NCBI GenBank assembly: GCA_964426805.1
Contig: CAYRRY010000003.1
Span: 1 to 42,606 of the forward strand
Length of the DNA: 42,606 bases
Source of the DNA: an uncultured Candidatus Saccharibacteria bacterium
GTDB taxonomy: Bacteria > Patescibacteriota > UBA1384 > XYA2-FULL-43-10
Direction: 5' to 3'
Below, one piece after another: positions 6,284 through 41,530 of this stretch. A program made the position numbers and the translations under genes. The notes beneath the pieces were generated by a model. That model was not told the origin of the DNA. It was given only the letters and a program-made list of their open reading frames with translations, and did no database searches. The stretch's first letter is position 1. Each line of letters begins with the position of its first letter.

Positions 6284-6313
6284 GATATTTGATTAATTTA
6301 GCGATGTGCGGTC

Positions 6314-7092: not shown

Positions 7093-7152
7093 TTTAGGCG
7101 TTAGGAGCTATAAATTAGGTTCTTAGGTTGAAGCATAATATTGTGAGGTACT

Positions 7153-9281: not shown

Positions 9282-9361
9282 GAGTTGCAAATCTTTCGCT
9301 TTTTACTGTAAAATATATAAAGAGACAAATCGAATAATTTCTAAGGTTTGGAGGGATAAAA

Positions 9362-25778: not shown

Positions 25779-25849
25779 CTTATTTCTATTGTATATTATC
25801 CCCTACTTAAATTCAACGAGTATTCATCCAAAAAAAACCGCAAGCAGAC

Positions 25850-26887
25850 TTAAGCTAGTACAAACTTTCCGCTTTCAAGCTTTTTAAATTCTTTCTGGGT
25901 TTGTAAATTTATAAGAACTGTATTCTTGCGAACAAACCTCTGCTTGGAAACAACCTTAAAAATGTCAGCAAAATCCATAGATTTATTTGCCTTCTTCATA
26001 ACAGAAACTATAACATCTTTTACAGTGCCGGATACATATCCCCATTCTTTGAGCGCGTAGATGCCCCTGCCTATCAAAACAAATCTGTCATCGGCAATCA
26101 ATTCATTGTGAACCGTAGCCGCAACAACTTTTTTCTGATCAAATTTTTCAGTTTCAATTGTACGAGCAATCTCTCGAAAATGAAGAGGTTTCTGATATCG
26201 CTTTAAGATAAAGTATATCTTGTCTCTGACAGTTTTTGGACAAACTTCTGGCCAAACGCTTAGACCGATTGTTCCCTCATATGTTTCGATTAATTTTCTG
26301 CTTACTTCTGGCAAAGCCATAAGGATGGTTGTGTTATGTTTTTTATGGTCTGGATGTTCTGATAACAATACCTCTATCTTTTTTGGAGTGCTTTGACTGT
26401 CCAAATATTTTGCCCAGTCTTTCAACACTTTAACCAATTCGTCTTTCGGCATTTTTGAGAGGACCCAACTGTCATGCAAGTTATCATCTCTCTCAATAAT
26501 CTCGATGCCTGGAATCAGTTTCAAAAATAAGTGTAGATAATTTTCCTTTTCAGAATCTTTCGAAGTTCCATCGATTATCTTATGGAGCGCTTTATCTTTC
26601 TTTACAATTCCGCCCAAACCTTCCATCTTTTCTACAATGTAATCAGAAAAATCTTTGTAATCACGAACAACACCCTGGGAAAGTTTTTTTAAAGCTTCTG
26701 CTTGGATCTGTCGAACTCGTTCTCGAGATAGCTTTAGTTCTCGCCCAATAGCTGCAAGAGATTTTATCTCTTTGCCAATTCCAAAACGACCAATGACCAC
26801 GCTGCGTTCATTTTCCTTCAACTTTCCTATTTCGGAATTCATAATCTTGACTAGCTCTTGAATTTTGTATTTGTTATTCATCTTCAT
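25850..26887 (-). CDS. Sigma-70 region-4-like HTH plus C-terminal HARE-HTH-like domain protein (not a complete sigma factor)
   Basis: ERSVVIGRFGIG.EIKSLAAIGRELKLSRERVRQIQAEALKKL matches sigma region 4.2, and no region 2 is present. C-terminus FREIARTIE...VHNELIADDRFVLIGRGIYALKEWGY is HARE-HTH-like. Confidence 0.65.
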   Translation of the reverse strand: MKMNNKYKIQELVKIMNSEIGKLKENERSVVIGRFGIGKEIKSLAAIGRELKLSRERVRQIQAEALKKLSQGVVRDYKDFSDYIVEKMEGLGGIVKKDKALHKIIDGTSKDSEKENYLHLFLKLIPGIEIIERDDNLHDSWVLSKMPKDELVKVLKDWAKYLDSQSTPKKIEVLLSEHPDHKKHNTTILMALPEVSRKLIETYEGTIGLSVWPEVCPKTVRDKIYFILKRYQKPLHFREIARTIETEKFDQKKVVAATVHNELIADDRFVLIGRGIYALKEWGYVSGTVKDVIVSVMKKANKSMDFADIFKVVSKQRFVRKNTVLINLQTQKEFKKLESGKFVLA

Positions 26888-26912
26888 TTGATTGTTCTTA
26901 AACTAATATTAT

Positions 26913-27413
26913 TTAATTGATGATATTATCTACAGCTGCCCAATCCACTTCTTCCTTCTCGGGGATAACTAGGCTTAGCTTGTCGCCAGGACTTGCCTTG
27001 AAATAAGTGACAGAAGCAAGAAGTAGCTGGTATTTCTTTCCATCCACATCTGCCTGAAACTCACCCTCATCGATCGCCTCAAGTGTACCTACAACATTCT
27101 TACGTTCAATCGGACCGATCTGCTTATAGGTATATCTCCCATCTTCGGAGACAGATAACTTTAATACGTCGCCAACAACTAGCTTAGACTTAGATGCATA
27201 GTTTAGAGGAACGTCGTACTCTTTCTTGTCGTTGCCGATCATTTTTTCGCCGTCAAAAACACCTTGCACAGCATCTTCCTCGTCAGCCGCTTCAACTCCT
27301 TCAGCCTTTCTTTCTACAGCCTGATCAAAAAGTTTTGACTTTGCAAGCCGTATTTTATTCTCTGCGTTGTCTAGAAGCTTTCGAATCTCCTCCAAATCTT
27401 TCTCGTGAACCAT
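26913..27413 (-). CDS. Hypothetical beta-rich protein with an internal duplication
   Basis: The ORF track starts at GTG 27449. The internal ATG at 27413 has an AAGGA SD. Two similar segments: SKLVVGDVLKLSV and FKASPGDKLSLVI. Confidence 0.55.
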   Translation of the reverse strand: MVHEKDLEEIRKLLDNAENKIRLAKSKLFDQAVERKAEGVEAADEEDAVQGVFDGEKMIGNDKKEYDVPLNYASKSKLVVGDVLKLSVSEDGRYTYKQIGPIERKNVVGTLEAIDEGEFQADVDGKKYQLLLASVTYFKASPGDKLSLVIPEKEEVDWAAVDNIIN

Positions 27414-27494
27414 ATTGTTCCTTTTTTTGTTTTTATGATTTATCTTCACTACATTACCATATAAGCTATTTTAAGTCAACTTATTTTTTAATTA

Positions 27495-27527
27495 AAAAAA
27501 CTATTAATTATTATTTAATAGTTTTTT
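27495..27527. terminator. AT-rich 13-bp perfect hairpin between the 849-aa ATPase gene and the downstream operon
   Basis: aaaaaactattaa / ttaatagtttttt with a 7-nt loop. A/T runs on both sides. Confidence 0.45.
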
Positions 27528-27601
27528 AAAGATAATACGATATTTCTAAACTATTTGTTATTCACTGCTAGCTATTAACTAAAACTCTACATGCCCAAAA
27601 T

Positions 27602-30151
27602 TTATCCCATAGGCCCCTTTTGGTTTCCTTCACCGATTCCCGGGAGATCTATCTTGTCCACTTTGGATCGTTCCAGAATCTCTTTTTCTATAACTTCTTT
27701 TGCTTTTCCGTATTTAAGTCTTGAAAGCTTCTTTATAGCTTCACCAAGTTTAACATTTTCGTTTGGATCGGGAGCTATGCTTATGCCGTTGAAAGGCCTG
27801 GTGGGAGCACCTTCTATGAGCATTTTAATATAAAAGTTATATTTATCGATAGTTGTCATATCGTCCATCTTCAGCGGATCAAACTCTTTCACTAAAAATT
27901 CCGCGTCAGCTGCACCAATTCTAAAGGAGATCAATGAACCCGCATTACCCATAACAGCGTCGCGGATTTCCTCGTCAAGTTGAGCCACGTATTGGTTAGT
28001 AATGCTCAAGGAAAGTTTGTATTTTCTGGACTCCGAAAGAATAGTCGCGAAAACGTCGGTAATAAAGTTTTGGAACTCATCGACATAGAGATAAAAAGGA
28101 ATTCTGTTTTCTTCTGGCATGTCCTGCCTTGAAAAAGCTCCCATGGCAATTTTGGAAACAATAATCATCCCCAATAAAAAAGCGTTGATTTCACCTATCA
28201 TTCCCTTCGAAAGATTGCAAATCAGAATCTTTTTATTGTCCATCACATCTCGAAAGTCAAAAGACGACTTCGTTTGTCCCAAGATGTTTCTCATCATATC
28301 GTTGGTCATAAAACGTCCAAACTTAGAGGTGAAATAGTTTAGCATCTCAGATTTGTGAAAGTCAGATGTTTTCTTCATCTGCTTCTCCCAAAAAGATCTA
28401 ACTACAGGATCAGTAACGTGTTTGACACAATCTTTCTCAAAATCAGGATCTGTAAATAATCTTGGAATATCTATTATAGTCCCCCCATCTGGCCTGGCCA
28501 TCAAAGTTAGTGAAGCATTCCGCATCCAGTGCTCAAACTGAGGACCCACTATTCCTGTTTGCCCAGGGTCAAACAGCTTGTAAAACATCTGAATGGCTTC
28601 CTGAACTAAAAAGTCTTTCTGCTCAACTGTTTTCCACTCAAGCATATTCAGCCCCATCGGTCGCTCGATGTCAGCGGGGTTAAAGTATATAACATCCTCT
28701 GCTCTTTCTTTTGGAATTCTCTTTAATATCCACTCCGCCGCGTCACCGTTCGGATCTAAATAAGCCACACCTTTCCCGGCCTTTATGTCTTGAAGAATCA
28801 TATTTTGAAACAAGACAGTTTTACCAACACCGGTTTTTCCTATCATATAAACGTGCCGCAGACGATCCTCATCTTTGATTTTTATCGGCTTTGTCTCTCC
28901 ACGGTAGATACTATTTCCGAGCACAGTTCCTTCGTTCGGCAAGTTCGGTGGAGGAGCGGCTCTTTTGGCTAGAAGCCACGAAATATTTGGAGTTTCAGTG
29001 AACCTATTTGGGAAGTGATAGATTGAGGCCAGCTCTTCAGTGTTCAAAAGCATTTTAGGTCCCCTACCATATAAACGGAAAGTATAGTTTGCTATCTCTT
29101 CTGATTTTTTCTTTGGAAATTGCTTTGATATTCCATTTGAGTCAGGTGCATTAAACTGATTAAAAGCTGAAGCGATATTGTCTAAGTTTTGCCGTGCCTC
29201 ATGCTCTGTTTTTGCAACCGCCACTGCTCTAACCTGGCAGTCAAAGCCAAGCTTGGCGGTCTTTTCGCCAAGTAATTTAATTTGAGACTCCTGCATCGGT
29301 GTCAGTTTGTGTGGTTGATTTGGATTATAGAACTGATCTTTGTTCTTTTCGTCTTCCGTTTTTCCGGAACTACTGATGTTGCCAATAAAATTGAAAAAGG
29401 TTTCAGCCACCTTCGAGCCAGCCGAGTTTCCATATGTAACCCTAGATTTACCCTGTTGCACGTTATAGGCCGCCTTCTCTACACTGTAGCGCCAAGTTCC
29501 CGAAGTCGGTCTCATCAGAATCTGCACTCCCGCAGTTTCATCTTCTGAAAGCTTGGAAAGTGAATTTGTAAGAGCATTAAGAGGATCGTCTTCAAGGTTC
29601 TTGTATGTTTTTATAGGGAAAATGTATTTTTTATTCAGTTTAAACTGCATCGCCTCAACTTTGAGTGGTTTGTCAGAAAATATCGAGTAATCCTCTATCT
29701 CCTTCGCTACCTCTACCTGAGCATGCGGATACTGAGCAAGCAGGTTTTTTTCCACTATTTGATAAATACTTTTAGGACAACCTACAAAGAAATACACCTT
29801 GCCATCTTTCGCCACATACTCTAGCGATATATGGTCTTGACCGGTCAAGTGGTGTTGTATGCTCTGCTTGAAGAGGGCTGATATGTTGGCATAAAATGGC
29901 TCCACCACTCCCAGCATCTCCTGAAAGTTTTTCTTCTGGTCATCCTCGTCGGCATGCTGTTCTTTGGGAAGTGAAACTTTTATCATCATCCAGTCCTTTA
30001 TTTTGTTGACCTGGGTTCGACGCAGGTATGATCTACGTAATTTCTGATACACAAAATAACCAACGATTATAACGATAGCAATAACGAGAGGCCAGACCCA
30101 CCACGGTGCCCCTCCAGAACCAGAAGTGTAATAATATTCACTTGTTGACAT
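27602..30151 (-). CDS. Membrane-anchored VirD4/TraD-like P-loop ATPase (paralog of 22467-25778)
   Basis: N-terminal TM helix, Walker A HVYMIGKTGVGKT, Walker B YLYVDEFQNF, SRKYKLSLSITNQ. Collinear with the 1103-aa paralog through the shared ELASIYHFP block. Confidence 0.78.
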   Translation of the reverse strand: MSTSEYYYTSGSGGAPWWVWPLVIAIVIIVGYFVYQKLRRSYLRRTQVNKIKDWMMIKVSLPKEQHADEDDQKKNFQEMLGVVEPFYANISALFKQSIQHHLTGQDHISLEYVAKDGKVYFFVGCPKSIYQIVEKNLLAQYPHAQVEVAKEIEDYSIFSDKPLKVEAMQFKLNKKYIFPIKTYKNLEDDPLNALTNSLSKLSEDETAGVQILMRPTSGTWRYSVEKAAYNVQQGKSRVTYGNSAGSKVAETFFNFIGNISSSGKTEDEKNKDQFYNPNQPHKLTPMQESQIKLLGEKTAKLGFDCQVRAVAVAKTEHEARQNLDNIASAFNQFNAPDSNGISKQFPKKKSEEIANYTFRLYGRGPKMLLNTEELASIYHFPNRFTETPNISWLLAKRAAPPPNLPNEGTVLGNSIYRGETKPIKIKDEDRLRHVYMIGKTGVGKTVLFQNMILQDIKAGKGVAYLDPNGDAAEWILKRIPKERAEDVIYFNPADIERPMGLNMLEWKTVEQKDFLVQEAIQMFYKLFDPGQTGIVGPQFEHWMRNASLTLMARPDGGTIIDIPRLFTDPDFEKDCVKHVTDPVVRSFWEKQMKKTSDFHKSEMLNYFTSKFGRFMTNDMMRNILGQTKSSFDFRDVMDNKKILICNLSKGMIGEINAFLLGMIIVSKIAMGAFSRQDMPEENRIPFYLYVDEFQNFITDVFATILSESRKYKLSLSITNQYVAQLDEEIRDAVMGNAGSLISFRIGAADAEFLVKEFDPLKMDDMTTIDKYNFYIKMLIEGAPTRPFNGISIAPDPNENVKLGEAIKKLSRLKYGKAKEVIEKEILERSKVDKIDLPGIGEGNQKGPMG

Positions 30152-30182
30152 TACCTATATGATAACAGATTAATGTTTATCT

Positions 30183-31439
30183 TTATGCTGCTGCATCTAA
30201 TTCTTCTCGCGCGGGTTGTTCTTCGGCCGCAGCATTCACAGAATGTTGATCTCTAAACATGTGCTCTGCGTTACTTGCCGCAGCTGAATTTGAACTTCCA
30301 TTCTGCATTTCTCTTATTAAATGTTGGGCACCGGCTGTTTTGCCTTTCTTACTCCCTCCACCAAACATTCTTGCCGCTCTTGCGAAAATCCCAGTCTTTT
30401 CTGCCGGTTCCTCCATTTCTTGAGCTTGAACATCGGGATTTCCTGTGTCTATTGGGCCGGCAAGCTCCATGGCAGGACTGTCGACAAGTTCCAGAATCGG
30501 CTTAGCAACAGGCACTGGTTGTTCTGCTTCAGCTGGCATTGCTGGTGCTTCTTGTTCAGTTGAATTCACTGCAGGCAAAACTTCTTGAACTTGAGCTGCT
30601 GCTTCGACTGGTTTTACAGGGACAGCCTCAGGGGTAGGTTTTTCGATTGAATTCTCAGTTGTCGGCATAGCCATACCTGAGAGATCTTCTGACTTGTCAG
30701 GGCTTTTAGGAGTTTGATCGGCCACCTCAGCAATAACTTCCCGGGTTGGGGTCAAGGGTTCGATTGGGAGAGAATCATTACTTGCCACATTCCCATCGGA
30801 AGCTAATTGGGTGACAGTATTTACATCAACAGCGACTTCATTTACAGTCGGCTCTTCATTCACCATTTTAGTGTCTGCCGCGTCAACGACCCCTCTCTCT
30901 CCTGCTCGCACCAAATCATTGACCGCTGCGTCAACTCCACCCTGAACCACCGGAGCACTGTTAGTGCCCAAAGCTTCAGCGGCTATTATTTTATTAGATA
31001 CTGCTTCAACTTTGGAGTCGACAGGTTCATTACCCTTTCGAGTATGGGTTTTTGCACCCACTACGCTCCCGTCACCCCTAACAGTCGCCACGTCAACTAT
31101 CTCAACCGGACTATCTGCTTGCTCGGCTGTCAGATTATCTTCAGGAGCAGCTTCCGGTTCAACGGCTGGCGGTGGCTCGGGTTTTGGTTTTCCGTGTCTG
31201 GGGAAATCTCTTGGATTCACATATGGCTTGATTGGCTCATTAATGATTGGTTTTCCTCTGTCTGGCTTCTTCGTACCAACAGCTTCTCCAGAGTTATCCA
31301 CAACTTCAGCAACTCCTGGCGTCTCACCCGGGGGTATAAACTTAAGCCTAGCCCCAGTCGGGCTGACTGCAGGAAGCGAGACAACACTCCTCTTTCTTGC
31401 TTCTTCTTGCTCTAGTAGTTCATTTAAATTTAAAGCCAA
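30183..31439 (-). CDS. Low-complexity P/A/V/E-rich protein (predicted disordered)
   Basis: 418-aa ORF with no TM segment or motif. GC is visibly above backbone (27/60 in the line at 30541). The plus-strand ORFs overlapping it are treated as shadows. Confidence 0.55.
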   Translation of the reverse strand: MALNLNELLEQEEARKRSVVSLPAVSPTGARLKFIPPGETPGVAEVVDNSGEAVGTKKPDRGKPIINEPIKPYVNPRDFPRHGKPKPEPPPAVEPEAAPEDNLTAEQADSPVEIVDVATVRGDGSVVGAKTHTRKGNEPVDSKVEAVSNKIIAAEALGTNSAPVVQGGVDAAVNDLVRAGERGVVDAADTKMVNEEPTVNEVAVDVNTVTQLASDGNVASNDSLPIEPLTPTREVIAEVADQTPKSPDKSEDLSGMAMPTTENSIEKPTPEAVPVKPVEAAAQVQEVLPAVNSTEQEAPAMPAEAEQPVPVAKPILELVDSPAMELAGPIDTGNPDVQAQEMEEPAEKTGIFARAARMFGGGSKKGKTAGAQHLIREMQNGSSNSAAASNAEHMFRDQHSVNAAAEEQPAREELDAAA

Positions 31440-31586
31440 AACCCCTCCATTTCCTATATGTTTATATCTGAAAACTTTTTTGTTGTATCTATATTGTACA
31501 AAGATTGCAGATGAATGTAAACATGTTGTATAATTATTTTAACAAGCGAATTTATGTATTTTTCTATTTAATAATCGGGGAGGGTT

Positions 31587-34500
31587 ATGAATGAGAGTCT
31601 GCGCTATGGCGAAAAAGAGCTTAATGACTTTATTGACAGACAAAATAAACAAAAAACCAAAGAAGAAGAAAATCCAGACAGACACAAAATGATGCGTTAT
31701 GAGGGCCCAGAAACCGATGATGCAGAAAAAGACCCTTTCGGTGTCGGCAAGGGATACGGAGCAAAAAAACTTGGAGTTGACAACCAGGAGTCTGAAACTA
31801 CAAACTCCACTGAGCTTGTTACCCTAAATGAAGTTAAGCCCATCTCTTCGGAGGTTATTAATGACGCTCTGAGCCTCGTAGAAGCTGACAATCGAAAAAA
31901 TGAAAATCTCAAAATTTTGAAAGAACTCATACTAAGACTAGTCCGCGAAGCTTTAGAAAAAGTACTAGCAAGCGATGGAAATGCTTACGAAGTAAAAGGC
32001 GCTGAAGGTAATTCTCAGAAAGAAGGTGTGCCGGTTGACAAAATGATCAACTTTCTCCTAGAAGAGATCGACCCTGAATCAAAAACAGAGATTTCTCTAA
32101 AGGGAGACAATAACACCTTGAGAGATGAAGTCCTGACTCAGGTTATGCACCCCTTCAACCGTCTTAGTCACCTAGAAAGAAGCAAGGTTGATGAATCTGA
32201 AGCCGCAATAATTGAAAATATCGATTTCATACTTACGTCAGAAGAGATAGCAGAAGAAGACCGCAAACGCCTAGAGATGGTTAAATTGATGATTGAAAAA
32301 TCGGAGAGATTTTTTGATCTAGATAGATCATCTTCACAATTCGACGAGGAAGGACGGAGAGTTAATAACGGCTGGAGAACTGATCACGAAGCTGAGGAGA
32401 TAAAAGAAGATGAAGTCCGCGACATGGGATCTGAAGACGCCAACCAGGAAAAAGCAAAGGCAGATTTGAATGATCGCAGAGAAGTCTTTGTTGAAGAAGA
32501 AGAGAATGTACCAGGAGGAGAAGCTGAGAAAGAGATAACACCAAAAGTTGTTGATTTCTCTGTTGAAGACGCTGAACCCACAGATCCAAAAACTGAACCC
32601 AGACAAAAAGCTCTACCGCCCCACCCCGAACAAGACGCGCTGCCGCCTCACGTTGAAGAAAAGGAAAAAATAAAGATCGCAGATATATCTGAAATCGTGA
32701 AGGCAATGGCTTGGAGAATAGCCGAAAATAGAGTCAACGAAGTGATTAACTCTGTAAATGTTCCTCAAGAATCAGGATTTTTCGGGAAAATAAAATCAGC
32801 TGCCAAAGGCATGTGGTCAAGATTAACAACTCGTGAAGGATGGCAATCCAGCCTGCACGCTATGTCAGAAGAGGGATACAGAAAAAAATATTATGATGAA
32901 GCGATCGCTGAAATACAGGGAAACAACGATTTGTTAAACGCGATAACCAACAGGGCTGAGGGAGAAGGAAGTGGCGGGACAACTCCGGAAAAAATTGAGC
33001 ATCACGAGATTCTTGATGCCGTCGTTAAACAGATGGAACTTGGCTTAGTAGAGGCTTGCGAACAGGGCGAAGACCTTGTTGACAGATCTGCTCAATTCGC
33101 CGAATTATTCAACAGACATCTGAAAGGTGAATTCTCTTCTAGAAGTGAATTCGAAGCCGCAGCAGAGGAAGCTATTAGAAATTCCGACCTTTCCCAAGAA
33201 GAATTTGCAAAAGACGAATCGCGAAGAGATGAAGCAGAGGGCCTAATGTACGCTTCGAACCTTTGGGACATTGCGGAGAGATTCAAAACACAAAGAGAAG
33301 AAGAGATAGATGCGGCACTTGGCTCTGAAAGTTTGTCAGATGTCGAAAAGGAAGCCTATATAGAGGGCTTGGAGGGATTGAATGACCTAGACATACAGTT
33401 AGTTACTAAGTTCGGAGACATAAACGAAGACCGAGCCAGAAGACCAGACAAAAAAGGAAGATATTTTAGTTGGGCAGACAACGCTCTCGACAGACTTTAC
33501 TCTGTGCCAGTTGTAGGAAGTGTAGCCAAGAAGATTACCCATCCGGTAGCAGTCGGCCTCGCTGCCTCGCTGCTTGCTCGACCTGCGGCAAAAGGAATTA
33601 TTCTAGGCGCTGCGGCAACTTTGGGTGTCGGTACTGGCTTTGCTCTGCCAATTCTAATCGGTGCTGGAATAGCAGGCGCTATTTCATACGGCAGAAGAGC
33701 CAGAAAAGTGGGACACGAAAGAGGTATGGAATCTAGAAGACAAACACTTGGCGAAGAGGGAGAGGGACAAACCGCTGAACAACTTCGTGAAAACACTTTT
33801 GCTCAAGTAGACGGAGAAGCTTTGCTTGAAGCGATAGGTAGTGACAACGAAGACGTTCAACACGACGCTCTTGTAGAAGCATCTTCTTTGCTTGAAGCCG
33901 AAAGAAGATTGAGGGCTCAGGGCAGAAATACTGATTTAATCAGAATAGGTCAAGCTGAAGGTCAGAGATTGCAATCAAACATTGTTACAAAAACTGAACT
34001 TATGGCTGCAGTTTCCGAAGCAGGACTCTCTGAAAAAGATCAACTTCTTATAAACGATAGGGCAGATGAACACGTTTCACAAGTCAGAGAAAAAGACCGA
34101 GACTTTGAAAGTTATCGCAAGAAAGAGAGTCTTCGCGCCGCAGCTAAATCTGCCGCCACTGCAGCTGTCCTGGGCTTCGCAGCTACTGAAATTGCTGACG
34201 AGGTAAGCGAACATATGCATAATGCGGGCGAACAAAATAATGTTGTAACAGCTAGCGAATGGATGCAGGGGCAGAGACCCGACGTGCATCATTATGAGCT
34301 GGATTCTCCCAAAGGCCCTGATGGTGAAAAAATTTGGGTATTTGAAAATAATTCAGACTCAATACCTGTGGAAGTTAATGAAAACCTAGACGTCGAACTT
34401 GGCATAAACGCAGAAACTGGTCAACTTGAACCCTATGGCGCACTGCCTGCAGGGGTAACCTTAGAAGACGGACAGATAGTACAGCACATCGAAGGTCTTG

Positions 34501-36728
34501 AAGGTGGCGAATTAAACGCCGAGAATTGGGGTGCTTTGCGAGACAAGCTAGTTGAAGATAACCCAGAGTTGTTCACAAAAACAGAATCAAATTGGACACG
34601 CTTTATGTCCAACGATAGACAGCCGCTCGGCAACTCTTATCACCCAGAAGGCTATACCGCTAATTCAGAAGGTACTGAGCTCGGCATGAGCTTTCTTCCT
34701 TCCGGAGGCGATGGCTCAGTTGATATAGATATTTCAGCCATGGCCGGCCATACAGCCTTTGGTGGCGGTCACAGCATAGATATCGGAAATGATACTCAAC
34801 TTTTTGTAACCATAGGACCTAGAGAGTATGAACTTTCTCACGATGTATTGGTTGTAGAAATCACTCCCGGCGAAAATGCCCACTTTCCCAAGGGGCTAGC
34901 AGACCGGTTTTTCGAAAAACTGAGCAATGGAAAAATCATCCCTAGAGAAGGCTTTCAGATAACAGTTGATCAGGCAATAGATGGAAATCTAAATACTATT
35001 GGCGATATGGATGAAACGAATATGGCTTCATTTGCTGCAGAAATCAATGGTTCAGAAGGAACAGTAGATGCGGTCGCTGGAATAGATAACGTGGTTTCAA
35101 TGCCTTCTGTTACTGAGCACAATGCCGGAGATGTGCTACCACCTATTGCTTTAGGGTCTGACCGCGAAAAACACGTTGGCAAGAAAAAAAGCGCTGAGGA
35201 TAAAACAAATAAAGACCAATTGCCGCCTGACCCGAAAAATCCCGAAACAGAGGAAGCCAACAAAGCATTAATCATGCCCGAAGATAAAAAAGAACAGATA
35301 TTGGAAGCATCGCGAGAAGCTGTGAAGAGCGGAGAACCTGAGAAAGCATCTATCTTGTCGCGATTGATTGAAGATGAGCAGATAGATCCTGAATCTTTAA
35401 AAGAGGAAATTAAAAATGACCATGGAGAGCGTTTTTCAGAAGAAAGATTCGATCAGGCCTTGGCTGAAATAACACTTATCGTCTCCCCGCCCCCGGAGTC
35501 ATCCTATGAAGAAAGTGCAGGTGACGAGGAAAATGCGCCCACTCCCAAACCTCACGAAGAAGAAACAACAGATGAAACCAAAAAAAGATTCCAAGAGGCA
35601 ATTATAATGTTCGATAAGGCCATCAAAGCAGGAGCTACTTTCAAGGATCGATTGCAAGCCGTAAAAAACGCTCAAAAAATGGGTTTCTACAGGGATGAAG
35701 AAGGAAAGGTTATAAACAAAATTAGACTGATTAGTCTCAAGGAAGATGATCAAGAATGGGATGACCAAGAGTGGGTTGATATCTCGGATCTTACAGAAGA
35801 CTATGACAACAGAATTTTGTTGACCTTAAGGGCCAGCAAAGAGGTGCTAAAAAAAGCGGTTGAAAAAATAGGAAAAACGAACCCCAACGACAGTCCCCTC
35901 TCAGAGCAGCTCAAAGGCGAAGCCGAAGAGAAGCCTGAAATAGAGGAGAATGTAGTTGACGAAAAAGAAGATGAGGTCGAGCTGGAAAATGCTGACAATG
36001 AAAAAGAGGGAGAAATTGAAAAGATTGTGCTAAACCGAGATCGCAAAGAGCAGCTTACTCAAAAACTTGAAGAGTACCAGCAGAGAGATCCTTACAAAGC
36101 TCCGGAGACGAAGATGGATACAGTATGCAAAACAGAAGTGTTGAATGCACTGCTTGAAGATGGCGAGGTAGATACTGAGAACCTTCGTGAGGAATTGCGT
36201 CAAAAGTACAGGTCTGGATTCCACGAACCAGCCTTTGATAACGCGATTTTCGTAATTAATAATTATAACGAAAACGGTGGAGTTGATGTTTCAGGAGGAT
36301 CGGGCTTACCACAAGTGGAAGCAAAAGAAGGAGAAGAGAAAGCGTTAAGCAAAGAAGAAGCGGCTGAACTCAAAAAATTGTCACGAGAGTACGGTGATTC
36401 TTTGAGCATGAAAGGCAACAGTCGACCAAGGTGGATTTTGCATGAAAATATCAGAAAAGGCACTATTGTTGAAGAAGGAGTTATAAATAAATCAGAAAAT
36501 GGTAAGGTTAGCCCAGAAGATAATTACAAATTAAGTGCTGAGGAATATTCTGTCTTTGGCTATGATGAAAAAACGGGCATGGTAGAAATGAAAATATCTT
36601 CGAAAAAACCTAAGAAGAGAAACGAAAGTGTCTCGATAAGACTAGATCGCCTAGTAAAATACATGGAGCCTAAAAAAGGGCATGAAGCTAGAAGACAGGC
36701 TGCAGCTGAAACAATTCAAGTAAATTAA
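31587..36728 (+). CDS. Giant (1713 aa) acidic protein with a central TM hairpin; no recognised domain
   Basis: GGGGAGGG SD. Uninterrupted 5.1-kb ORF. Hydrophobic block VAVGLAASLLARPAAKGIILGAAATLGVGTGFALPILIGAGIAGAISYG near residue 650. E/D/K-rich elsewhere. Confidence 0.8.
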   Translation: MNESLRYGEKELNDFIDRQNKQKTKEEENPDRHKMMRYEGPETDDAEKDPFGVGKGYGAKKLGVDNQESETTNSTELVTLNEVKPISSEVINDALSLVEADNRKNENLKILKELILRLVREALEKVLASDGNAYEVKGAEGNSQKEGVPVDKMINFLLEEIDPESKTEISLKGDNNTLRDEVLTQVMHPFNRLSHLERSKVDESEAAIIENIDFILTSEEIAEEDRKRLEMVKLMIEKSERFFDLDRSSSQFDEEGRRVNNGWRTDHEAEEIKEDEVRDMGSEDANQEKAKADLNDRREVFVEEEENVPGGEAEKEITPKVVDFSVEDAEPTDPKTEPRQKALPPHPEQDALPPHVEEKEKIKIADISEIVKAMAWRIAENRVNEVINSVNVPQESGFFGKIKSAAKGMWSRLTTREGWQSSLHAMSEEGYRKKYYDEAIAEIQGNNDLLNAITNRAEGEGSGGTTPEKIEHHEILDAVVKQMELGLVEACEQGEDLVDRSAQFAELFNRHLKGEFSSRSEFEAAAEEAIRNSDLSQEEFAKDESRRDEAEGLMYASNLWDIAERFKTQREEEIDAALGSESLSDVEKEAYIEGLEGLNDLDIQLVTKFGDINEDRARRPDKKGRYFSWADNALDRLYSVPVVGSVAKKITHPVAVGLAASLLARPAAKGIILGAAATLGVGTGFALPILIGAGIAGAISYGRRARKVGHERGMESRRQTLGEEGEGQTAEQLRENTFAQVDGEALLEAIGSDNEDVQHDALVEASSLLEAERRLRAQGRNTDLIRIGQAEGQRLQSNIVTKTELMAAVSEAGLSEKDQLLINDRADEHVSQVREKDRDFESYRKKESLRAAAKSAATAAVLGFAATEIADEVSEHMHNAGEQNNVVTASEWMQGQRPDVHHYELDSPKGPDGEKIWVFENNSDSIPVEVNENLDVELGINAETGQLEPYGALPAGVTLEDGQIVQHIEGLEGGELNAENWGALRDKLVEDNPELFTKTESNWTRFMSNDRQPLGNSYHPEGYTANSEGTELGMSFLPSGGDGSVDIDISAMAGHTAFGGGHSIDIGNDTQLFVTIGPREYELSHDVLVVEITPGENAHFPKGLADRFFEKLSNGKIIPREGFQITVDQAIDGNLNTIGDMDETNMASFAAEINGSEGTVDAVAGIDNVVSMPSVTEHNAGDVLPPIALGSDREKHVGKKKSAEDKTNKDQLPPDPKNPETEEANKALIMPEDKKEQILEASREAVKSGEPEKASILSRLIEDEQIDPESLKEEIKNDHGERFSEERFDQALAEITLIVSPPPESSYEESAGDEENAPTPKPHEEETTDETKKRFQEAIIMFDKAIKAGATFKDRLQAVKNAQKMGFYRDEEGKVINKIRLISLKEDDQEWDDQEWVDISDLTEDYDNRILLTLRASKEVLKKAVEKIGKTNPNDSPLSEQLKGEAEEKPEIEENVVDEKEDEVELENADNEKEGEIEKIVLNRDRKEQLTQKLEEYQQRDPYKAPETKMDTVCKTEVLNALLEDGEVDTENLREELRQKYRSGFHEPAFDNAIFVINNYNENGGVDVSGGSGLPQVEAKEGEEKALSKEEAAELKKLSREYGDSLSMKGNSRPRWILHENIRKGTIVEEGVINKSENGKVSPEDNYKLSAEEYSVFGYDEKTGMVEMKISSKKPKKRNESVSIRLDRLVKYMEPKKGHEARRQAAAETIQVN

Positions 36729-37191: not shown

Positions 37192-37223
37192 GAAAGACCC
37201 GCATGCAAGCATGCGGGTCTTTC
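37192..37223 (-). terminator. Strong hairpin terminator after the islet-3 313-aa gene
   Basis: 15-bp perfect inverted repeat gaaagacccgcatgc/gcatgcgggtctttc. The minus strand continues cctcgtttt. Confidence 0.6.
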
Positions 37224-37255: not shown

Positions 37256-38197
37256 TCAGCTGAGTCCCAGGCGAGCAAGCTCGCCCAGGATTTGATCACT
37301 ATCTTCGTCTTGCTCCGCGAACAACTCGCGAAGTGCCCAGTTGCCGGCGCGGCCGGCAACGACCGCCTTTTCGTCGGCGGCGATCGCTACGCGACCGGCC
37401 TCCTTGGCGACTTTCATCGCCGCGGCCGCGTCATCGCGGGCCACCTGGTCCACCACCGAAGTGGCGGGGGCAGAGGTAGCTGGTGCCTTCGGCACCGAAG
37501 TGACCGGTGTGCTCGGTCGAACCACCGTAACTACAGGTGGCACCGACGGTGAAGTCGGAAACGGCGATGTCGGGGCTGCCGGAGCTGGCGCAGTGGCAGT
37601 AGTCGCTTGGGCATTGCCCAGTCGACGAAGCACCATGATCAACATCACGATACAGGCTGCAACGCCTGCAGCAATCGTCCAGAGCCAGTAATACTGTCCG
37701 AACTGGTTCTGGATCGCGGTCGAAACCGCATCCAGAATTGACTGCTGATTGCCAGTCAGCACTCGCTGATTCCCCTCAATCAGCGTTCCAAGTCCATCTA
37801 CCTCGGTCGTAGTGTGCGCATTGATCTCATCGCGCACTCGGTTGTTGTCGACCGAGATGACACCACGAGCCTGCTCTTCCGTCAAGCCAACGTGAACTGT
37901 CCGTGTGCTAGTACGGAACCGAGTCCGGTACTGCACGCGCGTCTGCGGCGTCTGGGGGGTAAGTGTCACGTTGCCACCGACATTGACGTCGATGGACCCG
38001 CGTACCCACTCTGCGTTGCGCGCTTCGGTCGTGGAGCGTCGCTCCGCAAGCGGAGTGCCGACGAGAAGTCCGTCGGTGGTCCGGTCACCGTCACGCAACT
38101 GCGTAACGGAAACGTCAGCGTCTTGCACGGGATCGTAGGCCCACGCAGTCGACACCATCATCATTGCGACGAACATCAAGGCAGTAATTCTCTTCAT
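37256..38197 (-). CDS. Signal-peptide plus single-TM protein with a P/T/A-rich linker (high-GC islet 3)
   Basis: The ORF-track start is 38287, but ATG at 38197 has GAGGAGAGGA upstream. That start gives MKRITALMFVAMMMVSTAWA. TM helix YYWLWTIAAGVAACIVMLIMVL, then a linker rich in P, T, A and S. Confidence 0.68.
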   Translation of the reverse strand: MKRITALMFVAMMMVSTAWAYDPVQDADVSVTQLRDGDRTTDGLLVGTPLAERRSTTEARNAEWVRGSIDVNVGGNVTLTPQTPQTRVQYRTRFRTSTRTVHVGLTEEQARGVISVDNNRVRDEINAHTTTEVDGLGTLIEGNQRVLTGNQQSILDAVSTAIQNQFGQYYWLWTIAAGVAACIVMLIMVLRRLGNAQATTATAPAPAAPTSPFPTSPSVPPVVTVVRPSTPVTSVPKAPATSAPATSVVDQVARDDAAAAMKVAKEAGRVAIAADEKAVVAGRAGNWALRELFAEQDEDSDQILGELARLGLS

Positions 38198-38273
38198 CGT
38201 GAATCCTCTCCTCGTAAATTGTCGCCCTCTTGGGGCGTGATATGCACACCCCATTAAGGGGACTCTCAAAGTG

Positions 38274-38339
38274 AACTTCGAAAGCAAGCAAAGAATAAGT
38301 ACTTACTCTCTCTTCGCTTTCGAAGTTTATTCTTTTTTT
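38274..38339. other. 12-bp perfect long-loop hairpin plus T-run in the leader region of the 313-aa gene
   Basis: aacttcgaaagc (38274-38285) pairs with gctttcgaagtt (38316-38327). T-run at 38328-38339 on the plus strand. Confidence 0.35.
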
Positions 38340-38441
38340 AAGGTACAGTGTATTAATTTATATCAACTACACTTCACCTTAATCGAACAATTTGGTCAGA
38401 AAGCCCAGTCGCATATTGCTTCCAGGCTCTCAGGTTTTGGC

Positions 38442-38473
38442 GGGTGGCCGAGACATCGCTGTCTCGGCCACCC
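38442..38473 (-). terminator. GC-rich hairpin after the acidic-repeat gene
   Basis: 14-bp perfect stem gggtggccgagaca/tgtctcggccaccc with a 4-nt loop. No U-run on the minus strand. Confidence 0.45.
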
Positions 38474-38482
38474 AACCGGGTA

Positions 38483-38785
38483 CTACTCGACCTCGTCGTC
38501 AGCGGGCGGGGTCTCGTCGTCCTCGTCGTCAGCGGGCGTGGTCTCGTCGTCCTCGTCGTCAGCGGGCGTGGTCTCGTCGAGGAACAGCTCTTCCCTCATT
38601 GTGCGAGCGGCCGAAGCGATGGCTACGGCATTGCCCTCGACAAGTGCCAGTGCGTTACCAACCTCTTCATTCGCAGCCTGCTGGCCCGCGATTGCGCCTA
38701 TCTCGCTCAACTGAGCGAGAAAGGCGACGGCTTTCTTGTTGCCTTTTTCCGCTGCATTATTCGCTCTCTCGATGAGGGTTGACAT
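38483..38785 (-). CDS. Small helical protein with a tandem acidic C-terminal repeat (high-GC islet 3)
   Basis: The ORF-track start is 38857, but ATG at 38785 has GGAGG 9 nt upstream. Sequence runs MSTLIERANNAAEKGNKK...DETTPADDEDDETTPADDEDDETPPADDEVE*. Confidence 0.62.
   Translation of the reverse strand: MSTLIERANNAAEKGNKKAVAFLAQLSEIGAIAGQQAANEEVGNALALVEGNAVAIASAARTMREELFLDETTPADDEDDETTPADDEDDETPPADDEVE
38491..38580. repeat. Three tandem 30-bp repeats within the 38483-38785 CDS
   Basis: cctcgtcgtcagcgggcg(g/t)ggtctcgtcgt at 38491-38520, 38521-38550 and 38551-38580, nearly identical. They encode the DDEDDETTPA units. Confidence 0.9.
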
Positions 38786-38832
38786 TTCTTTGTGACCTCC
38801 AAGTGGAGCATTTTGGCGCGAACATACGAATT

Positions 38833-39030
38833 GCGCCATAATGTTGTACAATCTCATAGGCGGAGGGGGAGCCTACGTCTAACACTCTCCCGAAGGAAAG
38901 AGCTAGAATTGATCGTACAACATTCTGGCGCAATTGGTGCTGCAAAGTGTTGCTCAGTCATGCAGGCGGAGGGGGTACCCACATCTGTCGTCCCGAAGGA
39001 CAACAGAAAGAGACCAAGCAACACACTGCA
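38833..39030 (-). ncRNA. Two tandem structured RNA units with C-rich hairpin loops (6C-like), in the leader of the acidic-repeat gene
   Basis: On the minus strand each unit has an outer long-range stem, a UUCG-capped hairpin, and a hairpin with a 9-nt loop (A/U)CCCCCUCC. Stems differ between units but stay paired. Promoter at 39099-39127. Confidence 0.4.
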
Positions 39031-39098
39031 GCACATATAATTGTTTTATTCTTGAACTTCCCAAGGGAACAATTTCTCTCTCACCCTCAGAACTAGCT

Positions 39099-39127
39099 AT
39101 CTTAGCATATTAGAACAACTTTGTCAA
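39099..39127 (-). promoter_or_regulatory. Sigma-70-type promoter with extended -10, reading into islet 3
   Basis: Minus strand: TTGACA (39122-39127), 17-nt spacer ending in TGC, then TAAGAT (39099-39104). Confidence 0.5.
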
Positions 39128-39138
39128 TCCCTTTTTTA

Positions 39139-40230
39139 TTATCTTTTATTTTTCACTAGATCCAAATATACTTGCAAATTATGCAGCGTAGCCAGACGTA
39201 GGCCCAAGATCTCATTTACCCGTACCAGATGAGAGATATAGGCTCGGGAGAAACCTCCAGCGCAGGCTGGGCAGGCACAACTTTTCTCTATCACAGCCTT
39301 ATCGGTTCTGTATTTAGAGTTTAGAAGATTTATCAACTTATAGTTTTTGCCGTTTTTGATGTATACCGAACCATGTCTTGCTAAGCGTGTAGGCAAGACA
39401 CAATCAAACATATCCATACTGTACCCTATTGCTTTTTTTATATCGTCCGGAGTGCCTACGCCCATCAAGTACCTCGGCTTATCCGCAGGTAATATCTCCC
39501 CCATCAACTTCACCGTCTTCCACATATCACGCGTTTCATGATCAACCGCCAATCCTCCAACTGAATATCCGTCGAAATCCAGCTCAACCAGCCTCCTCAC
39601 ACAGTATTTTCTTTGCTCTAAGTCTAAACCACCTTGAACTATGCCGAACAAACCAGGACGCTCTCCTGCTTTCATGCCTTTAGTCTTTTTATTGAAATAC
39701 TCCTTCGATCTTTCTGCCCACTCAATAGTCAGTTCCACGGCTCTCTTGACCTCCGTCTTACTCGCTTTACCACTAGGGCAGACATCTAGCGGCATCATGA
39801 TATCTACGCCTAGATCAAGCTGAATCTGAATCACCTTCTCGGGCGTAAACATATGTTTTGAGCCATCTAGATGAGACTGAAACTCCGCACCTTCTTCGGT
39901 AATTTTGACGAGGGACTTTCTACCCTCTCCCCTATCTCCAAGTGAAAAAACCTGATATCCGCCAGAATCAGTCAAAATCGGCTTATCCCAACGCATAAAT
40001 TCGTGTAATCCGCCCATCTTTTTGATTAGTTTCTCGCCCGGTCTTAGATATAGGTGATACGTATTGGATAGTACGATCTGAGCTCCAAGCTGGCTAAGCT
40101 CTTCTGGGCTCACTCCTTTTACACTACCAACAGTCCCCACAGGCATAAAAAATGGGGTGTTAATGTCTCCATGGGGAGTTTTTATAACACCTGCCCTACT
40201 TTTAGATTTTTTGTTTAATACAAATTTCAT
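39139..40230 (-). CDS. tgt: Queuine tRNA-ribosyltransferase
   Basis: TPFFMPVGT, LSNTYHL, DSGGYQVFS, GLAVGE-like GGLAVDH, and the zinc site C.CPAC...H. ATG at 40230 (MKF...) is preferred over TTG at 40236. Confidence 0.95.
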   Translation of the reverse strand: MKFVLNKKSKSRAGVIKTPHGDINTPFFMPVGTVGSVKGVSPEELSQLGAQIVLSNTYHLYLRPGEKLIKKMGGLHEFMRWDKPILTDSGGYQVFSLGDRGEGRKSLVKITEEGAEFQSHLDGSKHMFTPEKVIQIQLDLGVDIMMPLDVCPSGKASKTEVKRAVELTIEWAERSKEYFNKKTKGMKAGERPGLFGIVQGGLDLEQRKYCVRRLVELDFDGYSVGGLAVDHETRDMWKTVKLMGEILPADKPRYLMGVGTPDDIKKAIGYSMDMFDCVLPTRLARHGSVYIKNGKNYKLINLLNSKYRTDKAVIEKSCACPACAGGFSRAYISHLVRVNEILGLRLATLHNLQVYLDLVKNKR

Positions 40231-41346: not shown

Positions 41347-41530
41347 TGTGCCTCCGCTTATTAAAAAATCTCCGCTTTCGCAGAGACAAAACTAAAAAAT
41401 GATTTAGTTTCCTCGGCAAGTGATTAAGCCACCCCTCGGGTGACACTTGCTGTCTCTGGAAGCATATTCAATTTATCATATCAACCCAATAGTGTCAACA
41501 GTCTCACTTTCTGATCACGTTAAAACCCAA
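41347..41530 (-). promoter_or_regulatory. rplJ 5' leader (L10-leader-like) with an attenuator hairpin
   Basis: Minus strand has nested stems gcaagtg...cacttgc enclosing caccc-gag-gggtg. Then tctctgc-gaaa-gcggaga plus six U (41363-41386), directly before the GGAGG SD. Confidence 0.45.

Follow-up and report, generated by a model that had tools for sequence, protein, structure and literature searches.

RsaE/RoxS and the UCCC-motif sRNAs of Firmicutes are stand-alone RNAs with a terminator that use C-rich single-stranded motifs as redundant seeds against Shine-Dalgarno (SD) regions. The csRNAs of Streptococcus (ccnA-E) are paralogous, CiaR-controlled RNAs of ~90–150 nt, in which an anti-SD-like sequence blocks translation initiation. 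Decoys of the CsrB/RsmZ type bind CsrA and carry many GGA loops. The 6C RNAs (RF01066; B11/ncRv13660c in Mycobacterium, scr3558 in Streptomyces) present unpaired loops with a conserved cytosine run, more than one per RNA. These C-rich loops bind G-rich ribosome-binding regions without a chaperone, and the family is restricted to high-G+C Gram-positive bacteria (PMC6486639).

We analyzed a 42.6-kb stretch of DNA, referred to as the window, and read the RNA described here on its minus strand. Positions 39035–38830 comprise two adjacent ~100-nt three-way-junction modules. Each consists of a stalk of 23–25 bp (P1), a variable side arm with a UUCG cap (P2) and a third hairpin (P3) whose 9-nt loop, N-CCCCCUCC, is invariant. 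A preliminary description of this DNA had reported two tandem units with such stems, UUCG hairpins and C-rich loops, and they lie where it had placed them, give or take a few bases. The 198-nt stretch adopts exactly the structure described, with an MFE of −100.4 kcal/mol compared with −55.1 ± 4.1 kcal/mol for 200 shuffled sequences (z = −11.1), none of which was as stable. Exactly two occurrences of the 11-mer CCCCCTCCGCC are found in the window, both of them inside these P3 loops. All features are listed in Table 1.

Table 1. Features of the tandem RNA and of the islet downstream of it, in window coordinates.
Feature	Position	Strand	Remarks
Sigma-70-type promoter: TTGACA, 17-nt spacer, TG-extended TAAGAT	39099–39127	−	10/12 matches
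P0, 5′-terminal leader hairpin UUCUGAGGG ... CCCUUGGGA	39059–39092	−	
A/U-rich single-stranded linker, P0 to unit 1	39036–39058	−	Unpaired in all folds; in 5/5 copies, sequence variable
Unit 1, three-way junction	38936–39035	−	MFE −57.7 folded alone; CM R1 100.4 bits; covariation
Unit 1 P1	39034–39012 / 38959–38937	−	
Unit 1 P2, CUGUUGUCC-UUCG-GGACGACAG	39006–38985	−	
Unit 1 P3, AUGUGGGU-ACCCCCUCC-GCCUGCAU	38984–38960	−	
Unit 1 apical loop ACCCCCUCC	38968–38976	−	Closing GGU/GCC; CCCCCUCC and GG/CC pairs constant in 8/8 units
Unit 2, three-way junction	38830–38934	−	Folds; inverted repeat I1; R1 85.2 bits
Unit 2 P1	38934–38911 / 38853–38830	−	
Unit 2 P2, UUCG-capped, 1×1 internal loop	38907–38878	−	
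Unit 2 P3, CGUAGGC-UCCCCCUCC-GCCUAUG	38877–38855	−	
Unit 2 apical loop UCCCCCUCC	38862–38870	−	Closing GGC/GCC
GUUCGCGCCAAAAUG, near-copy of unit 2 P1 5′ strand UUGCGCCAGAAUG	38809–38823	−	Read from sequence; alternative partner for GGCGC of P1 3′ strand
Gene 1 ribosome-binding site, hairpin CUCC-ACUU-GGAG	38796–38808	−	Over SD GGAGG (38800–38796)
Gene 1, 100-aa ORFan, acidic 30-nt-repeat tail	38483–38785	−	Hypervariable between strains
IGR2, another conserved and hairpin-rich non-coding segment, between the two genes	38198–38482	−	81% identity to L155 vs 56–57% in flanking genes
Gene 2, 313-aa ORFan, signal peptide, one transmembrane helix, Pro-rich linker	37256–38197	−	
Intrinsic terminator closing the islet	37192–37223	−	14-bp stem, 8 GC pairs, U-rich tail

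The module is also present in three further metagenomic lineages (L155/L003, L158 and L141), giving eight distinct units in total. Folded singly, all eight adopt a common shape in which the P3 loop is predicted to be unpaired every time. In the alignment, 89.8% of the paired cells can pair, compared with 30–48% when the partners are slid. Double-sided changes occur at 24 of the 41 pairs, a level reached by none of 500 shuffles; these statistics rest on few independent events, because the eight units stem from four lineages and several of them are paralogous. RNAalifold independently finds P1a, the internal loop, P1b, P2 and P3, with compensatory changes at 19 of 33 pairs. P1 identity between units drops to 35–50% while pairing is preserved. 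The earlier claim that the stems differ in sequence while pairing is kept thus gains support from homologues in three more lineages. Recent duplication followed by random drift, which had been named as a competing explanation, is ruled out: the second unit of the window shares 73% identity with its counterpart in the distant locus L158, against 63% with the first unit beside it, which makes the duplication an old one with both copies retained.

The many G-U pairs (two to seven per unit) identify the minus strand as the transcribed one. CM scores are 44–100 bits on this strand and 27–39 bits on the other. Folded as RNA, the opposite strand reaches −75.1 kcal/mol, which is 25 kcal/mol less favorable; with DNA parameters the values are −48.0 for the minus and −40.1 for the opposite strand. 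A 60-aa open reading frame (39036–38854) spans both loops in different frames, as expected from the earlier argument that the shared motif is non-coding. We rejected this frame as a small protein-coding gene, since it meets a stop after 16 codons in L155 and L003 and since the helix substitutions are compensatory.

CCCCCUCC and its closing pairs, fixed as GGY/GCC, form the sole invariant block over the eight units. The junctions are variable (0–5 nt) and P2 may be absent. A riboswitch would be recognized by numerous invariant positions in its junctions or internal loops; these are not found, and a ligand pocket is disfavored because the invariant unpaired nucleotides amount to one 9-nt apical loop with almost none in the junctions. 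The length of P1 given above holds for all eight units, and most of them have a small internal loop ~10 bp from the P1 base, at a constant position in seven of the eight. RNase III needs about two helical turns of dsRNA. The ~24-bp stalks could be RNase III substrates that, together with the 5′-terminal hairpin P0 present in every copy, determine how long the downstream mRNA persists or give rise to small hairpin RNAs, with the C-rich loop playing a secondary part. We consider such a processing or stability module improbable, since it leaves the invariance of the loop unexplained and we saw no gene for RNase III in the window. It would be compatible with, and not exclusive of, a reading of the loop as an anti-SD seed.

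The RNA is the best-conserved segment of its locus. Between the window and L155, nucleotide identity is 92% for unit 2 and 83% for unit 1, where nearly all differences fall into P2; the corresponding values are 57% for gene 1, 56% for gene 2 and 52% for a giant gene. Between L003 and L155 the units are 100% identical, gene 1 54% and gene 2 61%. Window–L155 identity of the P1 and P3 stems taken by themselves is ~97%, beside genes that have diverged by ~50%. This exceeds what the pure display of a seed needs and hints that recombination occurred recently or that a sequence-specific partner exists, be it an alternative pairing or a protein. The loop and the GGY/GCC pairs, shown twice on rigid arms, might be the recognition site of an RNA-binding protein that is dimeric or repeated, so that the RNA would serve as a decoy, scaffold or operator, comparable to the GGA loops of CsrB and CsrA. 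Such a role would fit the joint invariance of loop and closing pairs, the conservation of P1 and P3 sequence beyond structural need, the two identical sites in fixed geometry (units are 1–3 nt apart) and the strong promoter. It seems distinctly unlikely to us, however, as the islet encodes no candidate RNA-binding protein, neither gene 1 nor gene 2 has a convincing family match and the L141 transcripts are single-module. Known titrating RNAs, moreover, carry far more than two sites.

The likeness to 6C lies in the loops: a conserved cytosine run is present in all eight units (7 C in the 9-nt loop), which is a resemblance only. The architecture differs. 6C has two loops in a compact RNA of ~80–100 nt, whereas the tandem RNA has one C-rich loop per module of about that size, and, unlike 6C, it has a long stalk, an optional UUCG-capped arm and tandem paralogous modules. 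Its loop is the anti-SD core with extra cytosines, it can lead an operon, and the composition of the genome (~40% G+C) argues against an actinobacterium. The suggested kinship with 6C did not survive the Rfam search. RF01066 is unmatched at the gathering score anywhere in the window, whose sole Rfam match at that score is an L10 leader (41354–41477). With permissive filters it is unmatched even at E ≤ 10 in window positions 38700–39200 and in positions 6540–7110 of L158, and the tandem RNA is therefore not a 6C member. One might still think of a true but divergent actinobacterial 6C RNA, acquired horizontally together with the downstream islet, whose G+C content is 52–59% against a window average of ~40%; the loops are indeed C-rich with at least six cytosines. 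The absence of matches in two lineages, the different architecture and an islet that is old and syntenic in the lineage (L158, L155 and the window) leave this idea next to no probability. What appears to stand is a likeness to 6C in mode of action, by analogy, and not membership.

With RsaE/RoxS the tandem RNA would share C-rich seeds against SD regions and a stand-alone form with a terminator. The motifs of RsaE/RoxS are short (CCCC/UCCC) and lie in loops or linkers of small hairpins, whereas the loop described here sits on a long stalk; they are conserved across Bacillales, whereas the tandem RNA is known from four metagenomic lineages only and has no Rfam match. Like the csRNAs, it consists of paralogous units carrying an anti-SD-like sequence. 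In csRNAs this anti-SD/anti-AUG stretch is located between two hairpins and not in an apical loop, and there is no sequence or CM similarity. An identical short motif repeated in hairpin loops of one RNA recalls CsrB/RsmZ, but the loops are only one or two in number, C-rich and without a known partner protein.

Rfam E-value scans of the RNA and of L158 gave chance-level matches only. A blastn search against phages and plasmids returned nothing relevant, and we found no paper describing this loop or motif. In viral contigs, the patterns TCCTTCGGGA..CCCCCTCCGCC and TTCGGG..GGNNCCCCCTCCGCCT had only chance matches in coding DNA; a scan with TGTTG..CCCCCTCCGCCT..CAACA gave no match. The tandem-loop pattern occurred at 13 loci in viral contigs and at least 120 in genome contigs. 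Those genome loci that we read are tandem tRNA-Ser genes (3′ end CCCACCCCCUCCGCCA) and one protein repeat, and were rejected as family members. The remaining ones are taken to be G+C-rich chance matches, and the resemblance to tRNA-Ser is treated as an artefact of the search pattern. None of 151 pattern-matched loci fits the CM (best 21 bits).

The promoter and the gene 1 start codon with GGAGG ahead of it, both named in the preliminary description, are present (Table 1). A near-consensus promoter (TTGACA/TGnTAnnAT) precedes all five RNA copies in the alignment of the four lineages. A few nucleotides past the predicted start site each of the five leaders forms a hairpin, with differing sequences; the case for P0 is this recurrence, since no single hairpin energy beats its shuffles. 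Two G-rich leader boxes considered as cis partners of the loops were rejected, because both boxes pair with each other as P0. A pairing of the leader with the gene 1 start, seen in one MFE fold, was also discarded, as L155 does not keep it. At the other end, a U-tract directly follows the last P1 in three of the five copies (L158, L141-A and L141-B). These three combine the predicted features of a generic trans-acting sRNA: promoter, compact fold, invariant seed-like loop and U-tract. In the window and L155 the U-tract is absent, and the RNA is predicted to run on into gene 1.

The RNA and the fast-evolving ORFan locus behind it adjoin the rplKAJL-tgt cluster, and the islet has the same position in L158, L155 and the window. 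Gene 1 has no family match in Pfam, PHROGs or NCBIfam, and its PADLOC match to PycC is weak (E 0.0012–0.0049) and not meaningful. An exact-protein look-up found gene 1 not on record, as the repeat number differs in L002. IGR2 gave chance-level matches only in an Rfam E-value scan. Gene 2 is the sole recurring protein partner of the RNA, with homologues downstream of it in L003, L155 and L158; only three strong relatives were found among 1.84 billion representatives. Nothing credible was obtained for gene 2 in Pfam, PHROGs, NCBIfam or PADLOC apart from one weak NCBIfam match to SrfA, and its AlphaFold model (pLDDT 41) is unusable. A 110-aa and a 418-aa gene have no match in the same four collections. 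The window also contains giant ORFans and, 8–16 kb away, genes for VirD4/TraG-like (T4SS-like) ATPases. In L155 an IS element abuts the islet. Between L003 and L155 the alleles of genes 1 and 2 have been swapped amid 100% identical flanking non-coding DNA.

This genomic setting could point to a cis-acting 5′ leader or attenuator of the ORFan operon. In that case the loops would sense a factor in trans (protein, ligand or RNA), and formation of the last P1 would set whether the secreted-protein gene is reached by read-through or shut off by termination or SD masking. Several observations are in line with such a leader. Downstream of the RNA and on its strand there is always a gene for a secreted protein or for a member of the gene 2 family (the latter in the window, L155, L003 and L158), and the last P1 with its U-tract is terminator-like in L158 and L141. 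A mimic of the P1 5′ strand, GUUCGCGCC, follows downstream in the window and in L155; it is retained in L155 and L003, where the loop between differs, and could compete as an alternative pairing partner for the P1 3′ strand (38809–38823 in the window). The gene 1 SD is covered by a short hairpin, and L155 and L003 have other short hairpins at this place. The tandem layout also recalls tandem riboswitches, which can be cooperative. On the other hand, L141-A has its own promoter and U-tract without an open reading frame before the next promoter, gene 2 starts at a distance of ~180–700 nt with gene 1 being optional, and neither L158 nor L141 shows the alternative pairing. We regard a cis-acting leader or attenuator of this kind as rather unlikely.

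A role at the DNA level appears very improbable. The repeats could act as single-stranded hairpins (recombination sites resembling attC, or a mobile element's single-strand promoters or origins) or as recombination anchors for hypervariable cassettes, given the replaced gene 1 and gene 2 alleles, the nearby ATPase genes and IS element, and a minus strand that folds well with DNA parameters (z = −8.9). However, the strand asymmetry is strong and based on G-U pairs, in keeping with RNA, the compensatory variation includes wobble pairs, and in all five copies a consensus promoter is aimed into the repeats. The islet of the window holds no integrase, relaxase or recombinase, no integrase or recombinase was found among the window proteins scanned, and on our reading attC-type core sites are absent. 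The conserved flanks may nevertheless serve as passive homology for recombination.

About one third of the window genes have SDs (GGAGG/GAGG), roughly half of which are GGAGGG(G). The best computed loop-TIR duplexes, at −11.8 to −14.6 kcal/mol, are found at genes with GGAGGG(G). Gene 30183–31439 and ftsZ are examples with a GGAGGGG-led 5′ UTR. Scores of −10 or lower are reached by 17.6% of the TIRs and by 4.7% of the background windows; this enrichment argues for plausibility, not specificity, because any CCUCC loop fits many SDs. The loops had been described as complementary to GGAGG, including the SDs of the islet genes. This complementarity is seen as 5-bp matches at gene 1 (GGAGGU, −8.0 kcal/mol) and gene 2 (−9.0 kcal/mol), but the energies show that the islet SDs are not the best partners. 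One perfect 8-mer complement of the loop exists in the window, which is within chance (our estimate ~0.3). Pairing of the C-rich loops with G-rich, SD-like sites is the most plausible mechanism we can predict.

Based on the architecture and the loop we propose the following mode of action, in which transcription, transcript ends, targets and regulatory outcome are predicted from the sequence. The strong, constitutive-type promoter would give rise to a transcript consisting of the P0 hairpin, the A/U-rich linker and one or two stalk-and-loop modules. The rigid P1 stalks would hold out the P3 loops as seed sequences. Since the loop appears as an extended copy of the anti-SD core CCUCC, it can pair with GGAGG, GGAGGG and GGAGGGG ribosome-binding sites, and this pairing would block the initiation of translation. 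The C-rich loops of actinobacterial 6C have been shown to act in this way, and the same is described for RsaE/RoxS. In L158 and L141, the U-tract directly past the last module suggests a stand-alone sRNA that terminates at this point. With no such U-tract in the window and L155, the RNA would there head the mRNA of a hypervariable operon of two genes as its 5′ leader; from this position it may act in cis on the mRNA, be freed by processing, or both. A new lineage-restricted family of sRNAs or 5′ leaders, directed at GGAGG(G) sites through anti-SD-like loops, is our best explanation, which we hold tentatively as a real possibility.

A bolder version has, in our view, little chance of being correct. 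The RNA could be a strongly expressed anti-SD mimic, whose two arm-held copies of CCCCCUCC rival the ribosome for GGAGGG-type sites. Leaderless genes occur in this genome beside strongly SD-led ones (ftsA, ftsZ, the giant surface protein and others), so such a mimic would switch translation between both classes. The constant structured DNA of the RNA would at the same time provide an unchanging frame for the exchange of hypervariable surface-protein cassettes from strain to strain.

To our knowledge, uncultivated bacterial lineages with small genomes have so far yielded very few known regulatory RNAs. The RNA described here represents a compact, well-supported family absent from Rfam, built from a modular stalk, an optional arm and an invariant loop. 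Its seed sequence is identical to an extended anti-SD and is testable: if the seed model is true, changing CCCCCUCC to GGGGGAGG or to an A-rich loop would alter GGAGGG(G)-led expression. Should the loops not target SDs, an RNA that is 92–100% conserved amid proteins of ~40–60% conservation would still mark a function. If they do, riboregulation by C-rich loops would reach beyond Actinobacteria and Firmicutes, and the family would offer a handle on translational control where leaderless and SD-led initiation coexist.

Two adjacent modules of like architecture occupy positions 39035-38830 on the minus strand of the window. Each is a three-way junction with a long stalk (P1), a side hairpin (P2) and a hairpin with a C-rich loop (P3). 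The 198-nt stretch containing both units folds at -100.4 kcal/mol compared with -55.1 ± 4.1 kcal/mol for shuffled sequences (z = -11.1), and the predicted fold is that of the modules listed in the table. Within the window, CCCCCTCCGCC has exactly two occurrences, one in each loop. The opposite strand reaches a fold energy of only -75.1 because each unit contains four to seven G-U pairs, and R1, a covariance model derived from five of the units, gave 44–100 bits on the proposed strand versus 27–39 bits on the opposite one. It is unlikely that the units act as DNA hairpins. Coordinates and fold thus bear out the tandem minus-strand RNA pair of the preliminary description, as well as its promoter and the ATG at 38785, which is the first downstream of the promoter to be preceded by a Shine-Dalgarno sequence (SD).

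Features of the RNA units and the islet that they open
Feature	Position	Strand	Description
Promoter	39127-39099	minus	near-consensus TTGACA, 17 nt, TG-TAAGAT; directed into the units
Unit 1	39035-38936	minus	P1, 5-nt junction, P2, P3
Unit 1 P1	39034-39012 with 38959-38937	minus	23 bp, one U-U mismatch
Unit 1 P2	39006-38985	minus	9-bp hairpin, UUCG cap
Unit 1 P3	38984-38960	minus	8-bp hairpin, loop ACCCCCUCC
Unit 2	38934-38830	minus	P1, P2, P3
Unit 2 P1		minus	24 bp, one G/A mismatch
Unit 2 P2		minus	UUCG-capped hairpin with 1x1 internal loop
Unit 2 P3		minus	7 bp, loop UCCCCCUCC
Gene 1			100 aa, acidic 30-nt-repeat tail
IGR2	38198-38482	minus	hairpin-rich spacer of 285 nt, separating gene 1 from gene 2
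Gene 2			313 aa with signal peptide, a single TM helix and a Pro-rich linker
Islet terminator	37223-37192		strong

Homologous RNA was found at four metagenomic loci (L155, L003, L158 and L141). Each of eight distinct units, folded alone, adopts the same shape. In their model-fitted alignment 89.8% of the pair cells hold standard pairs, against 30–48% with the 3' partners slid. Changes on both sides were seen in 24 of 41 pairs, counts that stem from few independent events as the units represent only four lineages and include several paralogues; none of 500 shuffles reached the observed values. RNAalifold, run unguided, recovered these helices and scored 19 of 33 pairs as compensatory, and in a MAFFT alignment, which is not model-fitted, P1 and P3 were 95% paired with double changes in 10 of 32 pairs. 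The homologues thus uphold the proposal of covarying stems around a fixed C-rich loop. P1 comprises 23–25 bp in every unit and in seven of the eight is interrupted, some 10 bp above its base, by a small internal loop; its pairing stays intact at inter-unit identities down to 35–50%. P2 is freely variable, with compensatory changes between orthologues; it is missing from the second L141 unit (L141-B), and of the other seven units five cap it with UUCG and the remaining two with UUAC and UUUU. Invariant across the units are the loop CCCCCUCC, the GG/CC pairs that close it and two G-C pairs of P1.

A 60-aa ORF runs across both loops in the window. It reads them in different frames and, in both L155 and L003, a stop truncates it to 16 codons, so the small-ORF reading was rejected; the units are unlikely to be protein-coding, as the preliminary description had argued from the frames. 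Unit 2 of the window shares more sequence with L158 unit 2 (73%) than with its own neighbor, unit 1 (63%). The duplication is therefore older than these lineages and both copies have been maintained, which disposes of a recent duplication with random drift.

All five copies of the RNA transcription unit share the promoter TTGACA-N17-TGnTAnnAT. In every copy the predicted transcript start, GUUCUGAGGG, pairs with a CCCUURGGA-like stretch further 3' to form a 5'-terminal hairpin (P0), followed by an A/U-rich single strand of 15–25 nt and the unit or units. Directly 3' of the last P1, L158 and both L141 units have UUUUU, UUUUCU or UUUUCUAUUU, and no ORF lies between L141-A and the next promoter. 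In the window and L155 the U-tract is absent after unit 2. Its place is taken by GUUCGCGCC, a mimic of the unit 2 P1 5' strand, and then by a short hairpin covering the SD of gene 1. The same RNA is thus found in two settings: with U-tract endings as a stand-alone gene, and running on into gene 1 as the leader of an operon.

In L155 an IS element (HTH and rve transposase fragments, 6939-8296 and 9361-9636) abuts the RNA promoter, at the place taken by tgt in the window and L158; homology between L155 and the window starts exactly at the -35 box. L158 carries a gene for a 178-aa winged-helix and Cas2-like (PaaX-type) regulator between tgt and the RNA promoter (5941-6477), which is absent from the other lineages.

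The islet measures 1.9 kb at 52–59% G+C (chromosome ~40%) and is transcribed in the order promoter, leader, units 1 and 2, gene 1, IGR2, gene 2, terminator. Upstream lie rplA-rplJ, rplL and tgt; downstream and convergent are a 110-aa gene and a 1713-aa ORFan. Searches of Pfam, PHROGs, NCBIfam and PADLOC turned up nothing convincing for genes 1 and 2; the weak matches were PycC in PADLOC for gene 1 (E 0.0012–0.0049) and SrfA in NCBIfam for gene 2 (E 0.0043; 16.5 bits, cut-off 150 bits). The tandem repeat of the gene 1 tail (38487-38579, minus) numbers three copies in the window. L002, an otherwise identical contig of the same strain, has two, and its gene 1 encodes 90 instead of 100 aa. Besides the units, IGR2 is also non-coding and conserved; it comprises at least five hairpins and matches no Rfam family. 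Its equivalents are L155 5923-6210 and L003 569-915; in the latter, the longest hairpin is extended at its tip by a 59-nt insertion.

Nucleotide identity along the islet locus
Segment	Window vs L155	L003 vs L155
Leader	78%	
Unit 1	83%, with P2 accounting for nearly all differences	
Unit 2	92%	
Units 1 and 2 together		100%
Gene 1	57%	54%
IGR2	81%	81.6%, chiefly the 59-nt insertion
Gene 2	56%	61%
110/111-aa gene	75%	76%
Giant gene	52%	92%

Judged from these alignments, the islet locus is a fast-evolving mosaic with the non-coding RNA segments as its constant frame. Between L003 and L155 it looks as if protein cassettes had been swapped between constant non-coding anchors. Over L003 224-1926 and L155 4999-6552, gene 2 is identical for its first ~150 nt and ~50% identical thereafter.

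The RNA of L002 (ENA) is identical to that of the window. L155, a JGI contig of 26 kb that carries the whole islet, was reached via the 110-aa neighbor gene, L003 via gene 2 (44% protein identity) and L141 by one metagenome pattern scan. An exhaustive HMM search of 1.84 billion representatives yielded three strong and two weak members of the gene 2 family. One weak match, P0008, led to L158, from a more distant organism with the synteny of the window (rplA-rplJ-rplL-tgt ... RNA ... gene 2 homologue ... giant gene). R1 detected two units in L158 (69.6 and 44.3 bits) and the second unit of L141 (43.7 bits); it had no match in 151 loci fetched by pattern scans, and phage and plasmid collections held nothing similar to the RNA. 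As far as the collections searched show, the family appears confined to four related uncultivated lineages. The tRNA-Ser genes at L053 2830-2990 (minus) and L088 5990-6200 (plus), from CPR MAGs (Woykebacteria, Saccharibacteria), terminate in CCCACCCCCUCCGCCA, a 12-mer identical to the unit 1 loop plus 3' stem. We treat this as coincidence; the 12-mer was retrieved by our own search pattern.

Rfam recognizes a single family in the window, a ribosomal protein L10 leader (RF00557, 41354-41477, minus, 50.7 bits) upstream of rplJ. The remaining genes are housekeeping (enolase, ftsA, ftsZ, addA-like, secDF, nrdR) or encode VirD4/TraG/HerA-like ATPases. The block adjoining the islet (22467-36728) contains two VirD4/TraG-like ATPase genes, a sigma-70 region 4/HARE-HTH protein and the 418-aa and 1713-aa ORFans; no relaxase was seen in it, and it may be a secretion or conjugation-like apparatus. 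Other patches of 47–52% G+C (4829-5650, 13110-13610, 30183-31439) hold ORFans without Pfam matches, two with GGAGGG(G) SDs; the covariance model placed no units beside them.

The loop is the sole unpaired element with an invariant sequence and consists of the anti-SD core CCUCC with three extra Cs. SDs (GGAGG/GAGG) precede about a third of the window genes, roughly half of these being GGAGGG(G), not GGAGGU, and several other genes look leaderless. This usage hints at an unusual anti-SD tail of the host 16S rRNA, whose gene lies outside the window. At several of the leaderless-looking gene starts, including 6329 and 13729, TATAAT is found 6–7 nt ahead of the ATG. The best predicted duplex between the loop and a translation initiation region involves the 418-aa gene at 31439 (GGAGGGG, -14.6 kcal/mol), followed by ftsZ, a DUF3048 gene, ftsA, the ORFan at 13110 and the giant gene (-11.8 to -12.2). 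The islet SDs singled out in the preliminary description are weaker predicted partners, at -8.0 and -9.0 only. Outside the units, the perfect 8-nt loop complement (GGAGGGGG) has a single site (25739-25732, minus), in codons 14–16 of the gene for a 1103-aa HerA/VirD4-like ATPase, which is within the chance expectation of ~0.3.

We tentatively favor, at somewhat less than even probability, a mechanism in which the loops would act as displayed seeds against SD-like sites. It is the best supported one because the C-rich loops of the actinobacterial 6C sRNAs were shown to bind G-rich ribosome binding regions (PMC6486639), and it reaches beyond structure and conservation. The sequence conservation of P1 and P3, however, is unexpectedly strong and exceeds what seed display explains. 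Three other readings therefore stay alive: that the units are a cis-attenuator, a protein-binding RNA or RNase III-related.

Membership in 6C (Rfam RF01066) had also been suggested. The RNA gave no match to the 6C covariance model, and both architecture and host differ; the relation, which lies in the C-rich loops, is therefore one of analogy. RsaE/RoxS, csRNAs and CsrB-type RNAs have only single features in common with the present RNA, no Rfam family matched it, and our literature search found no paper mentioning the loop or such a motif. The structured RNA modules are a real, previously undescribed family, which by analogy would count as a variant of the "C-rich-loop riboregulator" kind. Narrowly distributed and with a putative regulatory function, it combines solid structural evidence with an unusual design and a testable seed.
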